Shown in pieces: positions 29,901-64,000 of a DNA stretch of 64,000 nt (positions are counted from its first letter, which is position 1; each line of letters opens with the position of its first letter). Both the position numbers and the translations under genes were made by a program. The DNA is from a virus (lineage: Duplodnaviria > Caudoviricetes). The notes under the pieces were generated by a model. That model was not told the DNA's origin, ran no database searches, and was given only the letters and a program-made list of their open reading frames with translations. The stretch lies in IMG/VR virus record IMGVR_UViG_3300029288_000008, positions 21,550-85,549 of that record; one strand, 5' to 3'.

Positions 29901-30815
29901 CTATTTTTTGTTTCTGCAAATTGTATTTATGTAATACTTGGTTACTCCAAACATCTTACCCAAAACTTCTCTATGATAACCAAGTGTTTTTAATCTTCTT
30001 ATTTCGTCTTTGTCTGATTCTGTCAGTTTTCTAATGTGGCATTTCTTGACATTTTCGCTTTGTGTAACATACTCAAGATTTGATAAGGTATTGTTTTGTC
30101 TGTTGCCATCTATGTGATTAACCACCAGATCGGATTTTCCAAAGAATGTTAATGCAATCAATCTATGGATATATTGCCTATCTCTATGTGCATTCTCGAT
30201 TAGGTTTACTTTTACATATCCATTAGGCTGTATCTGTGGTTTAAGTGCGTTACCTGATTTTGTGCTCAGTATCCTTCCATAATCGCTGGCATAATAACAA
30301 GTATATCCTGGTATCAACTTCACGGTTTCACCTTCTAAAACTTCAAAATCAAATCTCTTTTCTGAATCTTTCTTGTCTGTTTTTAATATGTTGCGTATAG
30401 TTGTTTTTGATACACCCATCATTTTAGCTATTTTTCCATAGCCGTACCCATTATTATGTAATTCGATTACAGTGTTTTTATCAGGTGGCTGTTTAGCTTT
30501 AGTTAATCCACTGATATGATAGGCGCAATGGATAGCGTTTTCAGATTGTGTCACCGCTTCTAAATTAGAAAGACGGTTATTTTGCTTATCACCATCTATG
30601 TGATTTATATTATAACCGTCTTTCAAATCAAGAAAAGCCATAGCAACAACTCTATGAATGAGCATTACATTATGATTTATGCAAACTCTACCGTATCCAT
30701 CTTGTTTGTTATAGTTAATGTTTAATGTATCGCGTTTGTAGGCGCTGTAAACTTCACCGTCGCTACTCACTACATACGCATTATCAAATCCCGGTATTGT
30801 TCTCCATTCAGTCAT
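29901..30815 (-). CDS. Tandem NUMOD4-HNH-HTH homing endonuclease (two complete units)
   Basis: EWRTIPGF..Y.VSSDG and VKLIPGY..Y.ASDYG; two HR..A..F..NHIDG.(K/R)QNN.LSNLE.VTQSEN motifs; HTH after each. Confidence 0.9.
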   Translation of the reverse strand: MTEWRTIPGFDNAYVVSSDGEVYSAYKRDTLNINYNKQDGYGRVCINHNVMLIHRVVAMAFLDLKDGYNINHIDGDKQNNRLSNLEAVTQSENAIHCAYHISGLTKAKQPPDKNTVIELHNNGYGYGKIAKMMGVSKTTIRNILKTDKKDSEKRFDFEVLEGETVKLIPGYTCYYASDYGRILSTKSGNALKPQIQPNGYVKVNLIENAHRDRQYIHRLIALTFFGKSDLVVNHIDGNRQNNTLSNLEYVTQSENVKKCHIRKLTESDKDEIRRLKTLGYHREVLGKMFGVTKYYINTICRNKK

Positions 30816-30851
30816 ACCCAACATTATACCAGCAATTGGTAAATGTGCAAG

Positions 30852-36256: not shown

Positions 36257-36795
36257 TTATGACAAGACCTTATTATTTAGATGTACCCGGTGCAGCATTA
36301 ACCAAGAATGAACGGGAATTGATTGTAAAGCTATCTTCTGAATTTGAAGGAACTCCATTATTTTTTGGAATTGGGGTAATGTGGGGAGGTTCTTTTCACT
36401 GTATGAGAGCCGGTAATCCTAATGCTGAAATCTATGGATTAGATATAGATTACTACACTTACCGTATTCATAGAGAAGACTTGATTAAAGCCATATTCTT
36501 AAAGGGGAATAGCACAACTTACCAATTCGACAAACCGATAGATTTTTTATTTGTGGACGGCGCGCATGATTATAATACAGTAAAAGCTGATATAGCCAAC
36601 TGGAAAGATCGGGTTAAAGTTGATGGCATTATTGCTTTTCACGATTTCAAACCAAAACAAGTTGACGTTGACCTTTTCCCATCTATTGTTGGTGTAAATA
36701 AAGCGGTTATGGAATCAGAACTAACACAAGTTGGAAAAAGATTTATACAAATAGAACAAGTAGATTCAATTATAGCATTTAGGAGAATAGAATAA
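36253..36795 (+). CDS. Class I SAM-dependent methyltransferase (Methyltransf_24-like)
   Basis: IDFLFVDGAHDY..VKAD...W..RVK.DGIIAFHD. Confidence 0.88.
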   Translation: MIMTRPYYLDVPGAALTKNERELIVKLSSEFEGTPLFFGIGVMWGGSFHCMRAGNPNAEIYGLDIDYYTYRIHREDLIKAIFLKGNSTTYQFDKPIDFLFVDGAHDYNTVKADIANWKDRVKVDGIIAFHDFKPKQVDVDLFPSIVGVNKAVMESELTQVGKRFIQIEQVDSIIAFRRIE

Positions 36796-41068: not shown

Positions 41069-41381
41069 CGTAAAAGAAGCCCGCGAACTAGTCGCAAGAT
41101 GTATTGAAACTTTAGATGATAACAAAACGGTAGAGGATGGGGATGTTGATACCCTCTGCGCCATTATCAATCAAATGTGTGAACACATTGAAAATACTAA
41201 AGAGCATAAATTGCTTACAACAGAAGAACAAACCATTATCGAAATGTTAACCGATGTGTGGAACTTATTTTTAGAACTTCCAGAGTTACACAGAAGTGAT
41301 ACAGTAGAATTTATGCAAGGTATTCACCTTTTACAGAACATCATTCTGGCTAGGATTCATTTAAGATATGGCAAAAGTTGA
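41022..41381 (+). CDS. Hypothetical protein (ELH..D..EF..GIH.LQNII.AR)
   Basis: ORF track; true start probably at MSINVK. Confidence 0.55.
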   Translation: MTLQRKLERCVIMSINVKEARELVARCIETLDDNKTVEDGDVDTLCAIINQMCEHIENTKEHKLLTTEEQTIIEMLTDVWNLFLELPELHRSDTVEFMQGIHLLQNIILARIHLRYGKS

Positions 41382-43518
41382 CATAATTATAACCTGCTAT
41401 AATAAGGAAGCGACTATCGCTAGAGCGATAGAATCAGTCAAACGGCAAACGTTGACAGACTTCTTTTGTATCGTTGTGGATGATGGTAGCACTGATAATT
41501 CTTGGTCAGTTATCAACAAAGAGATAAATAAAGACAAGAGGTTTATTGCCATCCAACTAAAAAACTGTGGTGTTGCTAATGCTAGAAACGTTGGAATTGG
41601 TTACGGCAATTCACCGTATATTACCTGTTTAGATGGGGATGATGGCCTTATTGACAGATTTTTACAAACCTGTTACGACGCAATTAAAACCGATAGAAGT
41701 TTAGGAGTTGTCTATACAGAAGTATTACTAAACCATCCCGATGATAACTTTACCATAGCCGATTGGACAAAACCAGATCATAATGCACAGTTTGAAGGAA
41801 AAAATCAAGTTCCCTGTTGCAATATGTTCAGACGTGACTTGTTTGATAGAGTGGGCGGGTATCGGCAACGTTACAGTCCAAAAGGAGCAGGTGCAGAAGA
41901 TGCAGAATTATGGTTACGATTTTTCAAACTAGGATACAAAGCGAAAAAGGTAACAGAAGAACCGTTATTTATCTACAACGCTTTCGGCGGTTTAACTCAG
42001 GATGGAAACTATACCGAGGTCAACTGGATTAACTGGCATACTACAAAACCATCCCCATCATTACAAAATCCTGAAAACGGTATTGTTCACATCGTCAATG
42101 AATACGACAGACCTGAAATCAGCGTTATCATACCGGTTATAGAAAAACACTTACACTATCTACAAGATGCCTTAGATTCATTAGAAGCGCAAACCTTTAC
42201 CAACTGGGAATGTATTGTAGTTTTCGACATTGAAGATTCTATCATCAAAACCATCAAAGAACTTGAATACTATGAGAAAGCCTATCCCTATGTAAAATTT
42301 TTGTACACATCTGGGGGATTAGGTGCAGGTTGTGCAAGAAATGCTGGTGTTGAATATTCAATAGGTGAGTACCTAGTATTTTTAGATGCAGATGATTATT
42401 TACAACCTAGATTTTTAGGATTATGTCTGTCTGCTCTCAAACACTTCAATGCAGATTGGGTATATACCGATTTGTATTCTCAGACAATACACAGCAGAGA
42501 ACAATTCGAGAAAGAGAAAAACAACGAATCTAAAATCATTAGAGAACGTAAAGAATGGGTAGAGTTTATCCAACCGTATCACAATGAGGAATGGAGTGTA
42601 GAAAAGTTACACCATAGTGGAATTGCGGCGGTTACAGCGCTTTATAAAAAATCAGACTTTGAACTGGTAGAAGGATTCGATCAAGAGAACAACCGAGAAG
42701 ATTGGGACTTCCATATGAGATTGGCTAAAGCTGGCAAATGTGGCTTGAGGTTGCCCTTACCACTTTTAACATATCGCCTTAATACTGGAATTCGCAGGGA
42801 GTATGTTGGAACCGCTAGAGATTCAGAAGAAAGCAAACAATTAAAGCAAAAGGATGTTGATAGAATTCACACACAATATGATTTAGGAGAATTGAAAATG
42901 GCTTGCAGTACTTGTAAACAAAAGAAAATTGACATTCAGAAACAAACCAATAACGCCCCAGAACTATATACCCTAGAGTATACCGGCAAAATTACCGGGG
43001 GGGTAGTTACCGGTCCGGTAACTCGCAAACAATATCCACTAAACAACTATAAAGGAAAAGTGATAGTATATAAGGTAGCTCCGCAAGACGCCCAAGCATT
43101 AGTCGGTAGGGGTTTGTTCGTACCATTGAACACAGAAAACAAACAAGCTCCGGAGTCGGTTATTGTTGCTCCTACACCTGCTAAAGTGGAAGTGGTTAAA
43201 CTATCGCATACCGATAGATTAAAAGCTTCTATGGAATTTGCAGAGAAGGCGAAAAAAGAAGCACAACTACAAATGGAAGCCGAGTTAGCCGCTTGGGAAA
43301 TTGCAAGTGACGAAGCCTTAGAAAAAACCGAAAAAGAACTAGACACAACCGTAACTTGGATAGACAATCCTGGAAGTTTTTCACTCGCCACATTAAAATC
43401 TTATGTCAATACTGAGAAGCCAAGTCAAGAGCGATTACAACTAGCCTACGACAATGAGGCGATGGGCAAAGCGCGTAAAAGTGTTTTAAATTTTTTGAAG
43501 GGGAAAGACACATACTAA
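41368..43518 (+). CDS. Double GT2 glycosyltransferase fused to a structural-protein-like C-terminal domain
   Basis: Two GT-A domains (IIITCYNK..VVDDGSTD..CLDGDD; SVIIPV..VFLDADD), then the MACSTC... domain and a terminal E..GKARKSVL motif. Confidence 0.88.
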   Translation: MAKVDIIITCYNKEATIARAIESVKRQTLTDFFCIVVDDGSTDNSWSVINKEINKDKRFIAIQLKNCGVANARNVGIGYGNSPYITCLDGDDGLIDRFLQTCYDAIKTDRSLGVVYTEVLLNHPDDNFTIADWTKPDHNAQFEGKNQVPCCNMFRRDLFDRVGGYRQRYSPKGAGAEDAELWLRFFKLGYKAKKVTEEPLFIYNAFGGLTQDGNYTEVNWINWHTTKPSPSLQNPENGIVHIVNEYDRPEISVIIPVIEKHLHYLQDALDSLEAQTFTNWECIVVFDIEDSIIKTIKELEYYEKAYPYVKFLYTSGGLGAGCARNAGVEYSIGEYLVFLDADDYLQPRFLGLCLSALKHFNADWVYTDLYSQTIHSREQFEKEKNNESKIIRERKEWVEFIQPYHNEEWSVEKLHHSGIAAVTALYKKSDFELVEGFDQENNREDWDFHMRLAKAGKCGLRLPLPLLTYRLNTGIRREYVGTARDSEESKQLKQKDVDRIHTQYDLGELKMACSTCKQKKIDIQKQTNNAPELYTLEYTGKITGGVVTGPVTRKQYPLNNYKGKVIVYKVAPQDAQALVGRGLFVPLNTENKQAPESVIVAPTPAKVEVVKLSHTDRLKASMEFAEKAKKEAQLQMEAELAAWEIASDEALEKTEKELDTTVTWIDNPGSFSLATLKSYVNTEKPSQERLQLAYDNEAMGKARKSVLNFLKGKDTY

Positions 43519-43571
43519 AAAATTATACTGGCAGATTATCTTATCTGCCAGTATTTGTTTGTTCTATATCA

Positions 43572-43594: not shown

Positions 43595-43667
43595 CTAAAA
43601 ACTATTGACAACCGTATAAACATCGAGTATACTGGTATCATCTTACACAGACAAAGGAGAAGCAAAA

Positions 43668-43883: not shown

Positions 43884-43979
43884 ACATTAAAAACACCATC
43901 TAGGTTAGGTGGTGTTTTTTGTTGTGTTGCAATTCAATAAAATATGTGGTATAATGAAGAAAAACCATAGGATATTATA

Positions 43980-45257
43980 ATGACATTTTCAAGTGAGTTT
44001 TGTCCAACGTTTTTATCGTTAGGTAGATATGCAAATCTGATCGGTCTTGACCCGTTACGGTTTTTTGGTGGTGTAACATCATTACGCGGAGTAAATCAAT
44101 GCTCTGATCTTTGGAGTCAGTTCTCTTGGCAGGATAGCGGAAAAGTATCGCGTGAAGAACTGCGACAAGCTATCAAACAAGCCGAGGATGATATAACGGC
44201 AACTGTCGGATACTTCCCTGCTCCTTACTGGCATACCGAAGTTGTATCCTATCCACAATTCTATCAAAAAGAATATAGGGGAGTTAGCGGCTTTCAATCA
44301 AATACATTCAATCATAAAACAGGTGTTACCAGTAAAAAGTATGTTATCAGTGGTGGTGTTAGGGCAACAACTGCAATTGACCCTAGAGAGATTACAAGGG
44401 GAACTGATATAGACACAACCGGAGACGGATTTACCGATACAGCTGTATTTACTGTAACCAACCTGACCTTTACCGACATTTGTGAGTTAAAAGCCTATTT
44501 CAAGGTTTATGATGATATTGACGCCGATAATTGCAGAACTGACCCGGCCAGTGAAGGGGTAGATGATTATTGGGAGATAACACCCATTCGGGCAAAGTTA
44601 AGTGGTACTACGGCCACAGTTTACATACCGGTTTACCTGCTATTCAAACCACAATTACAGCGCCGTATCAACGCCGGTGAAATAGATGCAGACGATTTTG
44701 CAAATAGCTATGTTGACACAGTAGAATTTTATAGGGTGTATAATGACCCAACTTCACAAGTATCATTCCTGTGGACAACTGAAAGCAGTTGTGAGGATTA
44801 CAGTTGCGCGTGGGCAGTTCAATCAGGATGTATGAGAGTTTGGGACAGTCGCCGGGGTATCGTTTCAGTATCGCCGGGAACTTATGACAGTACCACAGGA
44901 TTCTTTACCGGTAGCTGTTTTACACAGAATAGAGAACCTGACAAAATGATGCTGTATTATTATTCAGGCATGCGCAGTGAAAACAACCGTAACTGTGACG
45001 AGCTAAACAACAACTTAGCCAGAATCATAGCGATGTTGGCTAGTGCCAGACTGAATAAACCGGTTTGCACTTGCGAAAGTCCAGCACGTCTTATAGAGCG
45101 CTGGCAAGAAGAAGTAACGATGTCAAACGCTTCCAGATCATACAACCTAAGTGTAGCTGATTTAGAATGTCCATTCGGCACTAAATATGGGGAGCTATTG
45201 GCATACAAAGCTCTAAAGAACTTTGGAACTAAAGTCGGAAAGAACATTAGAGCATAA
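43980..45257 (+). CDS. Putative head-tail connector/head completion protein
   Basis: REELRQAIKQAEDDI...GYFPAP N-terminus and CPFGTKYGE C-terminus; promoter style shared with other structural genes. Confidence 0.5.
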   Translation: MTFSSEFCPTFLSLGRYANLIGLDPLRFFGGVTSLRGVNQCSDLWSQFSWQDSGKVSREELRQAIKQAEDDITATVGYFPAPYWHTEVVSYPQFYQKEYRGVSGFQSNTFNHKTGVTSKKYVISGGVRATTAIDPREITRGTDIDTTGDGFTDTAVFTVTNLTFTDICELKAYFKVYDDIDADNCRTDPASEGVDDYWEITPIRAKLSGTTATVYIPVYLLFKPQLQRRINAGEIDADDFANSYVDTVEFYRVYNDPTSQVSFLWTTESSCEDYSCAWAVQSGCMRVWDSRRGIVSVSPGTYDSTTGFFTGSCFTQNREPDKMMLYYYSGMRSENNRNCDELNNNLARIIAMLASARLNKPVCTCESPARLIERWQEEVTMSNASRSYNLSVADLECPFGTKYGELLAYKALKNFGTKVGKNIRA

Positions 45258-47341: not shown

Positions 47342-47430
47342 GCGCAAGAAAAAGATGATCGTTGACGGTAAATCGGTTTTTGTCATAGAGAAAGCAGTTA
47401 ATGAGCGCGGCAAGTGTAAAGAAAAAGTAC

Positions 47431-48552
47431 ATGAAGGCATATAAAGTTAGACTTGAATTAAACAACAAGCAAAAGACGTGGTGCAATCGCTGCGCAGGCG
47501 CTTCTAGGTTTGTTTATAATTGGGGATTGTCTGAATGGAAAAGACAATATGATGCATACAAAGAAGATAATACACTGAAAAGACCGTCTCGGTATGGTTT
47601 ATGTGTACAGTTTAATTCAGAAAAAGATGTTGTGTGTAAATGGATTAGAGAATATCCGTATGCTATAACTGAGGCGGCTTTTGAATGTTTAGGGAAAGCC
47701 TTTGATAACTTCTTTACACGTATCAAAAAAGGAGATTCTAAACTTGGCTATCCTAAATTTAAGAATCGCTATTCAAGAAAAACATTTAGACTGAGGGGAG
47801 TTAAAGTGGAATCGGATCGTGTATTCCTTCCTAAGTTGGGATGGATAAGACTGTCACAGACTGATTATATACCGGTTGGCGCAAGCTATGGAATTTATGC
47901 AACGATTAGCGAACGTGCCGGACACTGGTATATTTCGGTTTTGGTGAAAGATGAAACTGAAGTAAAGGCCGATTTGAATAATACCGTAATTGGAATTGAC
48001 TTTGGTATAGAATCTCTTGCGGTTTTGTCTAACGGGAAGGTATTTGACAATCCCAAACCACTAAGAGAAGCACAGTCAAAATTAAAACGATTACAAAGAG
48101 AACTATCAAGAAGAAATAAAGGTGGTAGTAATTATGCAAAAACAAAAGCACGTTTAGCTAAAGCAAATTTTACGGTTGCAAAAATTAGAGAGCACACTTT
48201 ACACCAAATCAGTAGTTATATAACCAATATTTGTAAACCATCGGTTATAGTTTTAGAGGACTTGAATGTGTCCGGTATGCTTAAGAATCATTGTCTTGCT
48301 CAATCTGTATCGGATGTTGGATTTTACGAATTGCGACGACAGATTGAGTATAAAGCAATTGCACTTGGTATAAAAGTTGTTTTTGTTGATAGATGGTTCC
48401 CATCCTCAAAGACTTGTTCTAATTGTGGATGCATAAAAGACGATCTTACATTAGGTGATAGAACATTTGTTTGTAACGATTGTGGACTTGAAATTGATAG
48501 AGACTTAAATGCAGCTATTAACTTGCGTAATATGGTAAGTGTGGTAGAATAA
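47431..48552 (+). CDS. tnpB: RNA-guided endonuclease TnpB (IS200/IS605/IS607 OrfB), catalytically intact
   Basis: HTH_OrfB N-terminus AYKVRLE.N..Q...AGASRFVYNWGL, RuvC-I GIDFG, RuvC-II VLEDL, Zn finger CSNCG/CNDCG, RuvC-III DRDLNAA. Confidence 0.95.
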   Translation: MKAYKVRLELNNKQKTWCNRCAGASRFVYNWGLSEWKRQYDAYKEDNTLKRPSRYGLCVQFNSEKDVVCKWIREYPYAITEAAFECLGKAFDNFFTRIKKGDSKLGYPKFKNRYSRKTFRLRGVKVESDRVFLPKLGWIRLSQTDYIPVGASYGIYATISERAGHWYISVLVKDETEVKADLNNTVIGIDFGIESLAVLSNGKVFDNPKPLREAQSKLKRLQRELSRRNKGGSNYAKTKARLAKANFTVAKIREHTLHQISSYITNICKPSVIVLEDLNVSGMLKNHCLAQSVSDVGFYELRRQIEYKAIALGIKVVFVDRWFPSSKTCSNCGCIKDDLTLGDRTFVCNDCGLEIDRDLNAAINLRNMVSVVE

Positions 48553-51266: not shown

Positions 51267-51629
51267 TTGTGTTATAATAAAGAATATAAAGGTTATATAA
51301 ATATGAGTATTGTCGAATTGGTTTTGTTGGGCTTTGCAACGTGGCGGCTTACTTCTTTACTGTATAGAGAAGAAGGGCCGTTTGGGATATTTGTGAAATT
51401 AAGGGAAAAGTTGGGTATACAGCATATTGATGGGAAGCCGTGTATATATCCAGATCGGTTTTGGTGTAAGTTGTTTAGTTGCGTGTGGTGTCTATCGGTT
51501 TGGGTAAGTGCTACATTTGTCGTATGGTATATTTTTTTGCCATCGGTTGCAATTATTTTTGCACTATGGTTAAGTTTAAGCACAATTACAATAGGATTAG
51601 ATAAATGGCTTGTTGTGGACAGAGAATAA
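51267..51629 (+). CDS. DUF1360 family membrane protein
   Basis: ATWRLT.LL..EEGPF..F..LR...LFSC.WC.SVWVS. Confidence 0.8.
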   Translation: MCYNKEYKGYINMSIVELVLLGFATWRLTSLLYREEGPFGIFVKLREKLGIQHIDGKPCIYPDRFWCKLFSCVWCLSVWVSATFVVWYIFLPSVAIIFALWLSLSTITIGLDKWLVVDRE

Positions 51630-51961
51630 CTAAGAAAAAGAAAGTGATTGTACCAAAACCAGAAGCGGTAGAAGATGGGTACAATGAGGGCGATTATGGT
51701 TTTGTGAAGGTTTCATACAATGGCGACTTAACCATTAAGGTAAATGGATGTAAGACGGGGAATCGGTATCTATTCGGTAAGGGGTCGGTAAGATCAGTTG
51801 ATTATGGGGATGCTCAGTGTTTGTTCGATCTAATGCCGGGCGCTTTCCAAGAAGTTGTAGAAGTTGTAAAAAAAGCGGCAAAGAAAGCTATACCAGTTGT
51901 TGAGAGTTTAGAAGATGGCATTAAAACCGATAATTCCGAGAGTGAATATATCCCAAGCTGA
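51605..51961 (+). CDS. Small Cys-start protein of the tail module; paralog of the C-terminal domain of the 41368-43518 glycosyltransferase
   Basis: MACCG...Y.G....V.G..T...Y......V...DAQ.L. Confidence 0.65.
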   Translation: MACCGQRITKKKKVIVPKPEAVEDGYNEGDYGFVKVSYNGDLTIKVNGCKTGNRYLFGKGSVRSVDYGDAQCLFDLMPGAFQEVVEVVKKAAKKAIPVVESLEDGIKTDNSESEYIPS

Positions 51962-52942: not shown

Positions 52943-53914
52943 ATGGCTACTACACAAGTTGCAGTGAATGATATTTGGGTTTGTAAAGATCAAAGATGCG
53001 CCGGGCAATGTGACGATAAGGTTGGACTTTGTCAGTATTTAATTTATGGATGCGACGCCCCAGATCCTACTTTTACCGCAGATTTAGCACATACAGCCGA
53101 TGGCGGCGCTACTTGGACAAATTCTGTTGACTATCCGTTTGCAAACGGTGAAAACATAATGAGCGTTGGTTGTTTCGCGCTTGACAACACCGTTACCAGA
53201 TGGCTTGCCGTAAGAGGCGCAGAGGTGGCACCGGCTAATCCTTTGGAGATTGCTTATAGTGACGATGGCGGCGCAAGTTGGACAAATGTAGATGTAGAAG
53301 CAGCTGGCACAAGATATGCAACCGATTCTGGAGCGTTGTTTGTACTAAATTCTAAAAATATTTGGTTAGCGTCTAGCGGCGGTTATATTTTCTTTAGTTC
53401 AGATGGCGGTATTACCTGGACACAGCAAGAAGACGGAACGGTTACAGCGGGCAACTATAACGCAATTATGTTTGCAAATGAAAATGATGGTTTTGCGGTT
53501 GCGGATACCGGTATTGTAGTAAGAACGGTTGACGGGGGCTTGTCTTGGACTGCCGTGACTGCAATAACCGCAGTTCCAAATGTTTTATGTGTTTACGTTT
53601 TCAATAAGGATGAAGCATTAGTTGGAACGGCAACCGGCGAAATTTGGCGAACTTGGGACGGGGGTACAACTTGGACTCAAGTTTATACCAGTGCAGATTC
53701 TATCAATGATATAGATTTTGCAAATAAGTATGTCGGTTTCGCGATTGCAGACGATACTGTTCTTAGAACTAGAAACGGCGGAGAGGACTGGGAAACCGTA
53801 TCTGGCACAACGGTTACTACCGAACTAAATGCCGTTGTAGCTTGTGACGAAAACACGGCTTACGCCGTTGGTGAAGATGCCGTTGGGGTTGGCATTGTTA
53901 TAAAAATTTCATAG
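52943..53914 (+). CDS. Asp-box/BNR beta-propeller protein (YCF48-like), tail associated
   Basis: Six T/S-x-D-G-G-x-(S/T)-W repeats. Confidence 0.8.
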   Translation: MATTQVAVNDIWVCKDQRCAGQCDDKVGLCQYLIYGCDAPDPTFTADLAHTADGGATWTNSVDYPFANGENIMSVGCFALDNTVTRWLAVRGAEVAPANPLEIAYSDDGGASWTNVDVEAAGTRYATDSGALFVLNSKNIWLASSGGYIFFSSDGGITWTQQEDGTVTAGNYNAIMFANENDGFAVADTGIVVRTVDGGLSWTAVTAITAVPNVLCVYVFNKDEALVGTATGEIWRTWDGGTTWTQVYTSADSINDIDFANKYVGFAIADDTVLRTRNGGEDWETVSGTTVTTELNAVVACDENTAYAVGEDAVGVGIVIKIS

Positions 53915-60658: not shown

Positions 60659-61782
60659 TTCTGTATGATAGCGCAGGAACTAAACTCGCAATTCTTGACG
60701 ATTATCGGTCATTGCAGTTTCAAAAAGTGGTTAATGATAAGGGCTTCTTTACCCTTATCATTAACAATAACGATGCAAAGAAAGCGCTATTTGAGAAAAA
60801 CGGTATTCTTATCGTTATGCGAAAAATACCAGGGTATACTAACTGGTATACAGAATTTGAAGGACACTGTGAAGATTTCTATACTAACATTTATCAGAAT
60901 GGCAATGAGCAATTTACAGTGGTTGGCAGCGGTTTTAATGGACTTCTAGCACGGCGCATTATCGCTTATGAGGAAGGAACTTTTCAGGCTTCTAAAAGCG
61001 ACTTCTCTGAAACCGTTATGAAAGAATTTGTGCAAGAGAACATTGGCCCATCGGCGACGGTTGCCAATACGCGCTTTGCCGATGGGGTACAAACAAACTT
61101 TACGGTAGCAGCCGACACTGCCGCTGGTTTAGTTTGGAATGGTGACAGAACCGGTAAAAACCTTCTTCAAGTTTTACAGGAAATATCAAACTTTTCAGAA
61201 ATTGACTTTGATGTTAGCACTAATACAACCGTTGGAACGTATGTGTTTCAAACCTATGAAGATCAGTTGGGTAGTGATAGAACTGTGGTCGGATTAAATC
61301 CGGCAACCGGGTTAAACGGCGCTGGCAACGCCCCTCACGTCTTTTCACCGATTATGGGAAATGTACAAGAAGCTTCATTTTCTACTAAGGCAAAAGAATC
61401 TTCTAATCGAGTATTTGTCTATGGTCAGGGTACAGGCGCAACAAGACAAATTGAATATAGAGAAGATGCTACTCTGATCGGTGTCAACAATATCAACCTT
61501 AGAGAATCCATGCGTGGTGGTAGTAGTCAAAATAGCGCTGTTAAACTGCAAAGTTTAGGGGATGAGCAGTTAGAAAAACTTAAAGAACAAGAGAAGTTTG
61601 AATTTACTCCGATGGATATTCCATCATCTTTATACGGTGTTAATTACTTCTTTGGTGATAAAGTTACCGTTAGAATTGGTAACGAACAACGAAACAAACG
61701 GATTGTCAGTGTTAAAATATCGTTAGCAAGTGGTAAAGGCGAATCTGAAAAATCATTTGAATTTGAGGACATACCGACATAA
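60628..61782 (+). CDS. Minor tail protein (ReqiPepy6 gp37-like/Tal-like hub)
   Basis: NRVFVYGQGTG, YGVNYFFGDKVTV motifs; position in the tail module. Confidence 0.75.
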   Translation: MARYTANYQIVLYDSAGTKLAILDDYRSLQFQKVVNDKGFFTLIINNNDAKKALFEKNGILIVMRKIPGYTNWYTEFEGHCEDFYTNIYQNGNEQFTVVGSGFNGLLARRIIAYEEGTFQASKSDFSETVMKEFVQENIGPSATVANTRFADGVQTNFTVAADTAAGLVWNGDRTGKNLLQVLQEISNFSEIDFDVSTNTTVGTYVFQTYEDQLGSDRTVVGLNPATGLNGAGNAPHVFSPIMGNVQEASFSTKAKESSNRVFVYGQGTGATRQIEYREDATLIGVNNINLRESMRGGSSQNSAVKLQSLGDEQLEKLKEQEKFEFTPMDIPSSLYGVNYFFGDKVTVRIGNEQRNKRIVSVKISLASGKGESEKSFEFEDIPT

Positions 61783-64000
61783 TGGATGAATTAAGGCAAT
61801 CGTTTGAAAGTATACGCGAAAAGTTAAAAGATTTATTCAATAGAGTAAATCAACTGGAAGCCGCGCCAACTATAAATCCAGGTGGTGGCGGCGGTGCGCC
61901 TGTAGACGCTCAATACCTAGTGCTTGCCTTCAATGCAACATTAACCAACGAAAGAAGACTTGACTTTTCGGCAAGATTTGCAACCGTAGACGGCGGTGCT
62001 GGCAACGATTATGATGTGGATTTAGCTGTAAGCGGTGTAGGGGCAGGTGTTTACGGAAGTGCTACCCAAGTCCCACAAATCACAGTTGACGCTTACGGAA
62101 GATTGACAAATGCTGTGAATGTTGCAATTTCTGGTGTACCACCCGTTTCCCATCCTCTATTAGGAAGCACATATCACAGCGATGTGGTAAACAACGGCCC
62201 TACACGTGGCAGCTTGATTTACGGCAATGCCACACCGCGATGGGATGAGCTTGCTTTGGGCGGCGTGTCTGGAAGTATCGTTACTAGAGACGCGACAGAC
62301 GTTTTGTGGAGTGATTATTCATTAGTTGGCACCGCCGGAAAAGTTTACACGTTCCCGGTTTCCGCAGCAACATTGGTTGCCGGGGGCGGCTCAGGGGTAC
62401 TAAATAGAATCGCTTATTGGTCAGACAACGAAACAATAACCAGCGCCGCCGGTTTGACGGTGGACGCGGCCAACAATTTCTATCTCGTGTCTAACGCGGG
62501 CGGGTTCGGAAACAGCGCGGCAACTGCGCGGCTTGTCTTTGACTCAAGCGGCGCGCAGGACTATGCATATTTTTCAGGGTGTTATGTGGGCATCAATGAC
62601 ACCGCGCCAAACTACCATCTCGACGTGAACGGCAAAATCGGCATCAATGGCGTGCAGACGGTGTATAATGCCGGGGCGCTGGATGCTAATTTTCTAGGTT
62701 CGATTTTTATTGGAAACGGTGGGGCTTCCATATCGCATACCGGCGGGATCGAGGGCTACTATAACTACGGGAATGGGCATCAGTCGCTAAACGATTTAAC
62801 TACCGGACACTCGAATTTTGCCGGTGGTTGGCGGTCGTTGTACCATATCACAACGGGCTACTGCAATGTCGCGGTCGGCGGGTTTGCTGGAGCAGATGAC
62901 GACGCTCTCAACGATCTGCTAACCAATACCTACTCTATATTCATTGGCTATGATGCCCGCGCATCGGCTAACGGCAACACGAATGAGGTGGTGATCGGCG
63001 GGAATATCGCGGTTGGGCACGGTAGCAATACAACCACCATTGGGAATGCAGCCACAACCGACTTTTATGCATTAGGAAACCATCATATAGAAGATGGTCA
63101 TTGGGTGGGGTCTGCCGCCGAACGTACCGTTTACGATACAACCAACAATCGGATAGACAACATGCTATCCGACGCATTAGGCGCAAGTACCTTGCGCGTT
63201 CTAAATAGCGGCGCTACTGTGGTTATGTATGTTACCAGTCTGGGGAATGCGTATTTTTCCGGTGACATTGCAGTCAATAACGGAAAATTTGTGGGTATCT
63301 CCGGCGACGTGCGCACGGTTTACGATTCGACGCTAGGAGCAATCATCGAACAACTTAATGACCTCGGTGGCACTGATGAGTGGAGAGTTTACGATTCGGC
63401 GTCCGTAAAAGTGGCCTATATCAATTCAGATGGAGAAGGCTATTTCGCTAGTAAAGTTGGTATTGGCGCAGTTCCGGCAACCGCGCTACATGTCGTCGGC
63501 GCGGTAAAAGTCGTCAGCAACGGCGACAAATTCTCGTTGTTTGAGGACGATGTGGCTGAGGCGAACGGCTATCTAAAACTAACCAACGCTACTGGCGCAG
63601 CAAATGTTCTCGTGCCATATCTGGCAATGAGGGGGAACACAACCGGCGCGGGATACAATGCGCTAATCGAGGCCATTTGCACCAATGATGCCGTGACGGA
63701 TACCGGCCCAGTAATTACCTATAGAGCCAGTCATGGTGCCACCGCTGTAACCAACCGTGTTCTGTTTCAGTTTCAGAACTATACGACCAACGTAATAACG
63801 GTGCTGGCATCTGGAGACACCGGCATTGGTACAGTGACGCCCGGCGCAAAACTGCACTTAGACCAGAGCAGCAGTTCGGGGGCAAAACCAGTTTTGACGC
63901 TAGACCAGGCCGATGAGGACTTTGTGCTCTGCAAGTTTATCGGCTATGCCAGCGCCGCAAGCGCCAATCGCACGTTTGTGAGCGCATCGGATTTCACCAC
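61782..64000 (+). CDS. Tail fibre/receptor-binding protein, runs off the right edge (not in ORF track)
   Basis: Spot-translated segments from ATG 61782 are open; APVDAQYLV...LTNERRL and repeated (V)GI....P...L(D/H)V motifs. Confidence 0.8.
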   Translation, partial: MDELRQSFESIREKLKDLFNRVNQLEAAPTINPGGGGGAPVDAQYLVLAFNATLTNERRLDFSARFATVDGGAGNDYDVDLAVSGVGAGVYGSATQVPQITVDAYGRLTNAVNVAISGVPPVSHPLLGSTYHSDVVNNGPTRGSLIYGNATPRWDELALGGVSGSIVTRDATDVLWSDYSLVGTAGKVYTFPVSAATLVAGGGSGVLNRIAYWSDNETITSAAGLTVDAANNFYLVSNAGGFGNSAATARLVFDSSGAQDYAYFSGCYVGINDTAPNYHLDVNGKIGINGVQTVYNAGALDANFLGSIFIGNGGASISHTGGIEGYYNYGNGHQSLNDLTTGHSNFAGGWRSLYHITTGYCNVAVGGFAGADDDALNDLLTNTYSIFIGYDARASANGNTNEVVIGGNIAVGHGSNTTTIGNAATTDFYALGNHHIEDGHWVGSAAERTVYDTTNNRIDNMLSDALGASTLRVLNSGATVVMYVTSLGNAYFSGDIAVNNGKFVGISGDVRTVYDSTLGAIIEQLNDLGGTDEWRVYDSASVKVAYINSDGEGYFASKVGIGAVPATALHVVGAVKVVSNGDKFSLFEDDVAEANGYLKLTNATGAANVLVPYLAMRGNTTGAGYNALIEAICTNDAVTDTGPVITYRASHGATAVTNRVLFQFQNYTTNVITVLASGDTGIGTVTPGAKLHLDQSSSSGAKPVLTLDQADEDFVLCKFIGYASAASANRTFVSASDFT

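Follow-up and report, generated by a model that had tools for sequence, protein, structure and literature searches.

A conserved in-frame start codon in a phage glycosyltransferase gene predicts a separately translated C-terminal module

The last gene of a glycan cluster in a siphophage-like member of the Caudoviricetes (IMG/VR record IMGVR_UViG_3300029288_000008) encodes a double glycosyltransferase joined to a C-terminal module of 206 amino acids, and a conserved ribosome-binding site and start codon inside the gene make it likely that the module is also produced on its own. All coordinates given here refer to the window, the whole 64,000-nucleotide stretch that was analysed, which forms the final 64 kb of a contig of 85.5 kb. 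Besides the glycosyltransferase gene, open reading frame (ORF) 41368-43518, the window holds a second ORF of interest, 51605-51961 (P0002), which may carry a diverged copy of one domain of the module and which lies beside a gene for a DUF1360 membrane protein. The genome encodes a large terminase, primase, NrdD, a ClpP-type head protease, a tape measure, Dit and further tail proteins. Its lineage is rare: INPHARED and IMG/VR contain no close relative, and only ~10 metagenomic contigs are known. Comparisons were made with DNA gathered from four orthologues at 62-87% identity (tail region) and from more distant ones found through exhaustive search.

The full-length product of the glycosyltransferase gene (P0001; orthologues are 711-719 amino acids long) matched Pfam PF00535 over two stretches (E = 3.5e-49; 167 bits against a cut-off of 23.3), and each half bears a DxD motif, DGDD at residues 89-92 and DADD at residues 340-343, that is invariant across five orthologues (Table 1). 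Both halves are generic GT2 domains: their nearest named relatives, TuaG, EpsD/E, WcaA and PglI, are enzymes acting on polyprenol-linked (lipid-linked) glycans, and the matches to them fall far below the family cut-offs. One relative (L007:7077-9218) encodes the GT2 halves in two genes, for proteins of 198 and 487 amino acids, with the module on the second only, and in another (L004, described below) the beta domain of the module is separate, identifying the parts of this gene as modular.

An AlphaFold2 model of the module, built from seven sequences (mean predicted local distance difference test, pLDDT, of 74.6), divides it into four parts: a start rich in Cys and Lys, a small beta domain, a long helix set off from that domain by a predicted disordered linker, and an end of three helices. 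The terminal E..GKARK.VL motif reported in the initial annotation of this sequence is present and is invariant in close orthologues. The three-helix end was also found alone behind other N-termini, in P0014 and P0017, although the hydrophobic start of P0014 looks like a miscalled frame and was set aside. In P0017, a metagenomic protein of 86 amino acids, it follows a fragment resembling the N-terminus of HU/IHF (Pfam Bac_DNA_binding, 22.2 bits), which suggests that the end moves as an independent unit. Neither the module nor P0002 belongs to a family in Pfam, PHROGs or NCBIfam, and sequence searches of the PDB with both returned nothing; the beta domain gave weak Foldseek matches to GINS B-domain entries (3anw, 5ghs and 5ghr), and candidates for the nearest known small beta folds are the GINS B-domain, the N-terminal domain of YqbF (PDB 2hjq) and the N-domain of ribosomal protein L9. 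The module represents an undescribed family.

The module begins at a putative translation signal. Within gatttAGGAGaattgaaaATGgcttgc, a Shine-Dalgarno (SD)-like AGGAG at 42885-42889 is separated by an 8-nt spacer from an ATG at 42898 in the frame of ORF 41368-43518, exactly where the initial annotation had placed them, and translation from this ATG gives the same 206-amino-acid sequence that it quoted. AGGAG or AGGA stands at a similar distance from genuine starts of this phage, that at 36795 being almost identical, and on a truncated contig the gene caller picked the ATG equivalent to 42898. Eight loci have DNA at the site, and each of them, down to ~33% identity, retains the methionine (Met511) with GGAG 6-8 nt ahead of it. 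These four nucleotides are encoded by A-GGA-GAA (Gly-Glu) in the window, L021 and L022, by GAG-GAG (Glu-Glu) in L005 to L008 and by AAG-GAG (Lys-Glu) in L002; GGAG has thus been preserved across three different pairs of codons and two substitutions in the protein (E to G and E to K). With GAG a minority glutamate codon in these genes (21-40%), the joint chance of this conservation was estimated from GAG counts at ~1e-6 on the assumption of independent loci. When the four full-length loci were compared, GGAG proved to be conserved in all of them at just two places in the 2.1-kb gene, of which this one alone is followed by an ATG.

Silent positions around Met511 gave a second line of evidence. 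Excess identity of synonymous codons was measured among six orthologues, correcting for pair- and residue-specific codon usage, and the gene-wide maximum fell at residues 497-526 with a 30-codon window, 510-524 with 15 codons and 499-507 with nine, in every case within ~15 codons of Met511. Several observations weigh against internal translation as the explanation. Among the likely genes of the window, GGAG precedes 4 of 208 in-frame internal ATGs by 4-10 nt, so that a single genome yields such sites at chance level. The loci are related and not fully independent, making the true chance weaker than ~1e-6, if still small. The synonymous excess is modest (ratio 1.3-1.55), other windows being nearly equal at nine codons, and could reflect some other RNA element. 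RNA near the internal start is not unusually unstructured (15th-41st percentile of the gene), and as local folding is no weaker than average, accessibility does not discriminate between the possibilities. Finally, the phage is uncultured. No sigma-70-like promoter was found just upstream of 42898.

Judged from the aligned relatives, the pairing of an SD sequence with ATG at Met511 is far beyond chance, though not within the window alone, and the codon comparisons indicate that an element around Met511 is under selection at the nucleotide level. Given such selection, internal initiation is the simplest reading, and we consider it likely that ribosomes starting at 42898 release a free 206-amino-acid product. 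The earlier suggestion that one gene yields two products is accordingly retained as a probable one: the C-terminal 206 residues are separable and carry a conserved in-frame SD and ATG, while the second product is itself a prediction from sequence. More generally, silent-site conservation across metagenomic relatives has here turned a chance-level combination of SD and ATG into a testable prediction.

Table 1. Positions in the window of the glycosyltransferase gene, its module and associated features
Feature	Position	Strand	Basis or remark
Glycosyltransferase gene P0001, 716 amino acids, two GT2 domains and a non-catalytic C-terminal module	41368..43518	+	ORF list, Pfam
GT2 domain 1, residues 6-162, DGDD motif	41383..41853	+	Best Pfam stretch; LDGDDG invariant in orthologue alignment
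GT2 domain 2, residues 252-481, DADD motif	42121..42810	+	Pfam PF10111 over 252-481; LDADDY invariant
Shine-Dalgarno-like AGGAG	42885..42889	+	8 nt ahead of internal ATG; GGAG kept in 8/8 loci
Nested in-frame ORF P0003, 206 amino acids, start at invariant Met511	42898..43518	+	Alignments; synonymous-conservation excess
Cys/Lys-rich start of module (MACxxC, then K-rich)	42898..42957	+	Predicted disordered; pLDDT <50 for residues 1-20
Small beta domain, module residues 24-76	42967..43125	+	Strand-strand-strand-strand-helix-strand; pLDDT 76-87
Long single helix, module residues 104-148, possible coiled coil	43207..43341	+	AlphaFold2; generic coiled-coil matches only
Three-helix C-terminal end, module residues 163-204, with NEAMGKARK motif	43384..43509	+	pLDDT ~90; motif conserved
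Intrinsic terminator-like hairpin	43525..43554	+	12-bp stem and T-rich tail; closes glycan operon
DUF1360 membrane protein gene	51267..51629	+	Pfam PF07098, 30.6 bits against cut-off 21
P0002, 118 amino acids; beta domain residues 33-83 (51701-51853)	51605..51961	+	Probable distant paralogue of module beta domain

A survey of relatives for fused and free forms of the module, as the initial annotation had proposed, found both states, fused in eight loci and as a separate ORF in L004. Every close relative has the fused module. In L004, a distant IMG/VR phage, a GT4-GT2-GT2 gene ends in a stop codon and is followed by a small ORF, in another frame, that carries the beta domain, matches the fused-domain profile (hhalign probability 89%, P = 2e-6) and is itself followed by a DUF1360 ORF. 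These data also fit a fusion relic, in which a glycosyltransferase gene and a small downstream gene like that of L004 were joined by stop loss, leaving the old ribosome site unused and the 716-amino-acid protein as the only product; the unfused state is seen in L004, and L007 shows how readily domains of this gene split or fuse. An unused site should decay, yet this one is kept in eight loci as far as 33% identity, its GGAG is maintained by way of minority GAG codons and amino-acid changes, and it sits at the maximum of synonymous conservation in the gene. We therefore regard a relic as unlikely, and internal initiation as the better account of the site.

The free beta-domain ORF of L004 has a relic start of its own (L004:11374-11382; ATG GGC TGA TGC, reading M-G-stop-C-K-K), in which TGA replaces a cysteine of relatives and so interrupts the Cys-rich start. 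The 831-amino-acid glycosyltransferase ORF of L004 lacks internal TGA, making general recoding unlikely, and the TGA may stem from mutation or from a sequencing error, selenocysteine being an improbable third reading. Two other candidates for a free homologue were rejected as truncated fused genes: the frame of P0015, on the 606-bp contig L002, is open upstream with ...DLKELK before the methionine, and P0016 (L003) begins at a contig edge. In wider searches, INPHARED phages gave generic GT2 matches only and none for P0002 or DUF1360; IMG/VR gave the single distant locus L004, with empty scans for P0002, the NEAMGKARK pattern and the BNR protein described below; metagenome scans gave nothing; GTDB genomes gave generic GT2 matches only; and 300 genomes of the bin's order held no relative of P0002, a match in L009 (E = 3e-4 per genome) being at chance level.

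The initial annotation had also aligned the module with ORF 51605-51961, taking the latter for a tail-module protein. The ORF translates to the 118-amino-acid sequence quoted there and has four orthologues at 58-82% identity. The alignment itself fared less evenly: BLASTP between module and P0002 is not significant (E = 0.86), and profile-profile alignment recovers the same register, if weakly (hhalign P = 3e-4 to 8e-3, probability 5-39%). P0002 is the top non-self match of the beta-domain profile among the 165 ORFs of the window; P improved as diversity was added, from 0.006-0.025 to 8e-4, was 0.0017 (probability 39%) with AlphaFold2 secondary structure and 3e-4 with secondary-structure scoring off, and the score was reached by none of 200 column shuffles. 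AlphaFold2 models of the two proteins have an identical order of strands and helix in the register of the alignment, both find their best weak PDB matches among GINS B-domains (3anw, 5ghr and 5ghs) and ribosome entries, and their two lists of top 50 BFVD neighbours have 7 entries in common. A search of all six frames of the 64 kb for M-[AG]-C with 50 or more open codons after it gave just two sites, 42898 and 51605. A similar 88-amino-acid viral cluster was returned for both queries from the ESM Atlas, at scores (0.87 and 0.78) below the useful range, and was set aside. P0002 is adjacent to DUF1360, with a 25-nt overlap between the end of that gene and its own start in both the window and L013; the free domain of L004 is adjacent too, and there the DUF1360 ORF (P0022) scores 21.8 bits against the PF07098 cut-off of 21.

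Chance likeness, or convergence of two small beta folds rather than common descent, is a serious if less probable explanation of this resemblance. Apart from the BLASTP result, a search of the entire genome with an HMMER profile of the beta domain misses P0002 at E <= 10; all hhalign probabilities for the pair are <40%; the single-sequence hhalign P of 0.0066 is the chance level for the best of 165 ORFs, albeit P0002 is that best ORF; the profile E-value becomes ~0.1 once corrected for 165 ORFs; and the free domain of L004 aligns with the P0002 profile at only P = 0.16. Against coincidence stands the agreement of several weak but independent signals: a profile P close to 1e-3 and improving with diversity, the same secondary-structure order and register, common PDB and BFVD neighbours, the unique MAC starts and adjacency to DUF1360. 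Because these agree, we find homology between the module beta domain and P0002 plausible, and the likelier of the two explanations.

The place of P0002 among tail or virion proteins found no support, as its only detectable tie is the translational overlap with the DUF1360 membrane protein gene. Virion families in Pfam, PHROGs and NCBIfam gave no match to P0002 or to P0020, the protein encoded 3' of the glycosyltransferase gene, and the module is likewise without a virion tie. DUF1360 is the only partner that the data suggest, which implies docking at the membrane: the beta-domain family would bind DUF1360, and the fused copy would hold the glycosyltransferase at the inner membrane, the site of lipid-linked glycan building. 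The 25-nt overlap in the window and L013 and the gene order of L004 are in keeping with this idea, as are the resemblance of the GT2 halves to polyprenol-linked-glycan enzymes, far below family cut-offs as it is, and the Cys/Lys-rich start, which would suit a membrane surface. However, adjacency to DUF1360 is seen in two lineages only, the glycosyltransferase and DUF1360 genes lie 8 kb apart in the window, and DUF1360 itself has no known function, so membrane docking is offered tentatively, as a reading less likely than not, and with equal reserve the corollary that the same DUF1360 anchor also binds P0002 and the free module. The model first put forward for this locus, that a virion-type module docks the glycosyltransferase on assembling particles or makes it self-glycosylating, here read as glycosylation of the module's cysteines, is less supported than membrane docking, and we think it improbable. 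Against its premise of a virion-type module stands the absence of family matches noted above; a terminator and promoter-like sites stand between the glycosyltransferase gene and P0020; and P0001 scores 24.6 bits against a cut-off of 350 for the SunS-type peptide S-glycosyltransferase family (NCBIfam TIGR04195).

Taken together, we somewhat favour an explanation in which gene 41368-43518 encodes a double GT2 enzyme with a 206-amino-acid non-catalytic module and a nested start, and P0002 is a diverged copy of the beta domain. The conserved SD and ATG at Met511 would let ribosomes also start inside the mRNA and, the frame being the same, the gene would yield both the 716-amino-acid enzyme and the free module as an in-frame nested gene. 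Free and enzyme-bound copies may associate via their shared helical part, or compete for one partner, and this interplay would set the amount of docked enzyme, with the beta domain as a possible docking surface. P0002 would be a probable second, diverged copy of that domain, paired with the DUF1360 membrane protein. A bolder generalisation, which we advance only as speculation, is a small phage adaptor family, made of a Cys/Lys-rich start and a GINS-B-like beta domain and working with the DUF1360 membrane protein, that exists in three states: free, fused to an enzyme, or in both forms where a conserved internal start lets a single gene supply them. The balance between the free and the fused adaptor would then place and dose the glycosyltransferase at the membrane or at assembling particles. 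If confirmed, the arrangement would show localisation or dosing of a phage glycan machine, and would give a first functional handle on two unannotated families (the module and P0002) and on DUF1360.

Other features of the contig were recorded alongside. Downstream of the glycosyltransferase gene, terminator-like hairpins (43525-43554 and 43889-43919) and strong promoter-like sites (43605-43633 and 43927-43955) bracket a 71-amino-acid ORF in the interval before P0020. P0020 itself (43980-45257) is a Cys-rich protein of 425 amino acids with no match in Pfam, PHROGs, NCBIfam or the PDB; its position 3' of the glycosyltransferase gene is kept in at least four relatives, and it is 50% identical in L003. 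A BNR/Ycf48-like beta-propeller protein of 323 amino acids (52943-53914) is encoded directly 5' of the tail chaperone and tape-measure genes, the position expected for the major tail protein. LAGLIDADG-type ORFs occur at differing sites in relatives, between GT4 and GT2 genes at L022:2893-3657 and after Dit at L013:13055-13987, whereas the window has an HNH endonuclease (29901-30824) and TnpB (47401-48552) instead; mobile nucleases thus shift position within this phage lineage. G+C content rises from ~0.38 to 0.52 at 62001-64000, within an open-ended ORF of 739 amino acids that starts at 61782. The contig was binned in a genome (G000) of 1.25 Mb, compared with 0.3-1.0 Mb for genomes of the same order, and it may belong to a phage of a small-genome host or be mis-binned.

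Glycosyltransferase genes also stand beside structural genes in the virion glycosylation clusters of mycobacteriophages (PMC11256854). The likeness lies in GT2 and GT4 genes set among siphophage virion genes; those enzymes, unlike the one described here, are not reported with this module or an internal start. The predicted release of a C-terminal domain by internal initiation has parallels in type III secretion, where internal initiation in SpaO/SpaO-C, YscQ/YscQ-C and SsaQ gives a separate C-terminal domain, and this domain binds its full-length counterpart. Fold and system are unrelated to ours, and in our case the free and fused forms are only inferred to bind each other. In phages, in-frame nested genes such as lambda C protease/Nu3 scaffold and T7 gene 4A/4B are a classic route to an enzyme and an assembly partner in fixed relation. 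We know of no in-frame nested gene for a glycosyltransferase. The present gene differs from the lambda and T7 pairs in that the long product is a glycosyltransferase, the common part belongs to an undescribed family and the two products are predicted, but the layout is the same: one frame with an internal SD and start, and a short product that corresponds to the C-terminal part of the long one, the assembly or docking region in those pairs being common to both products.
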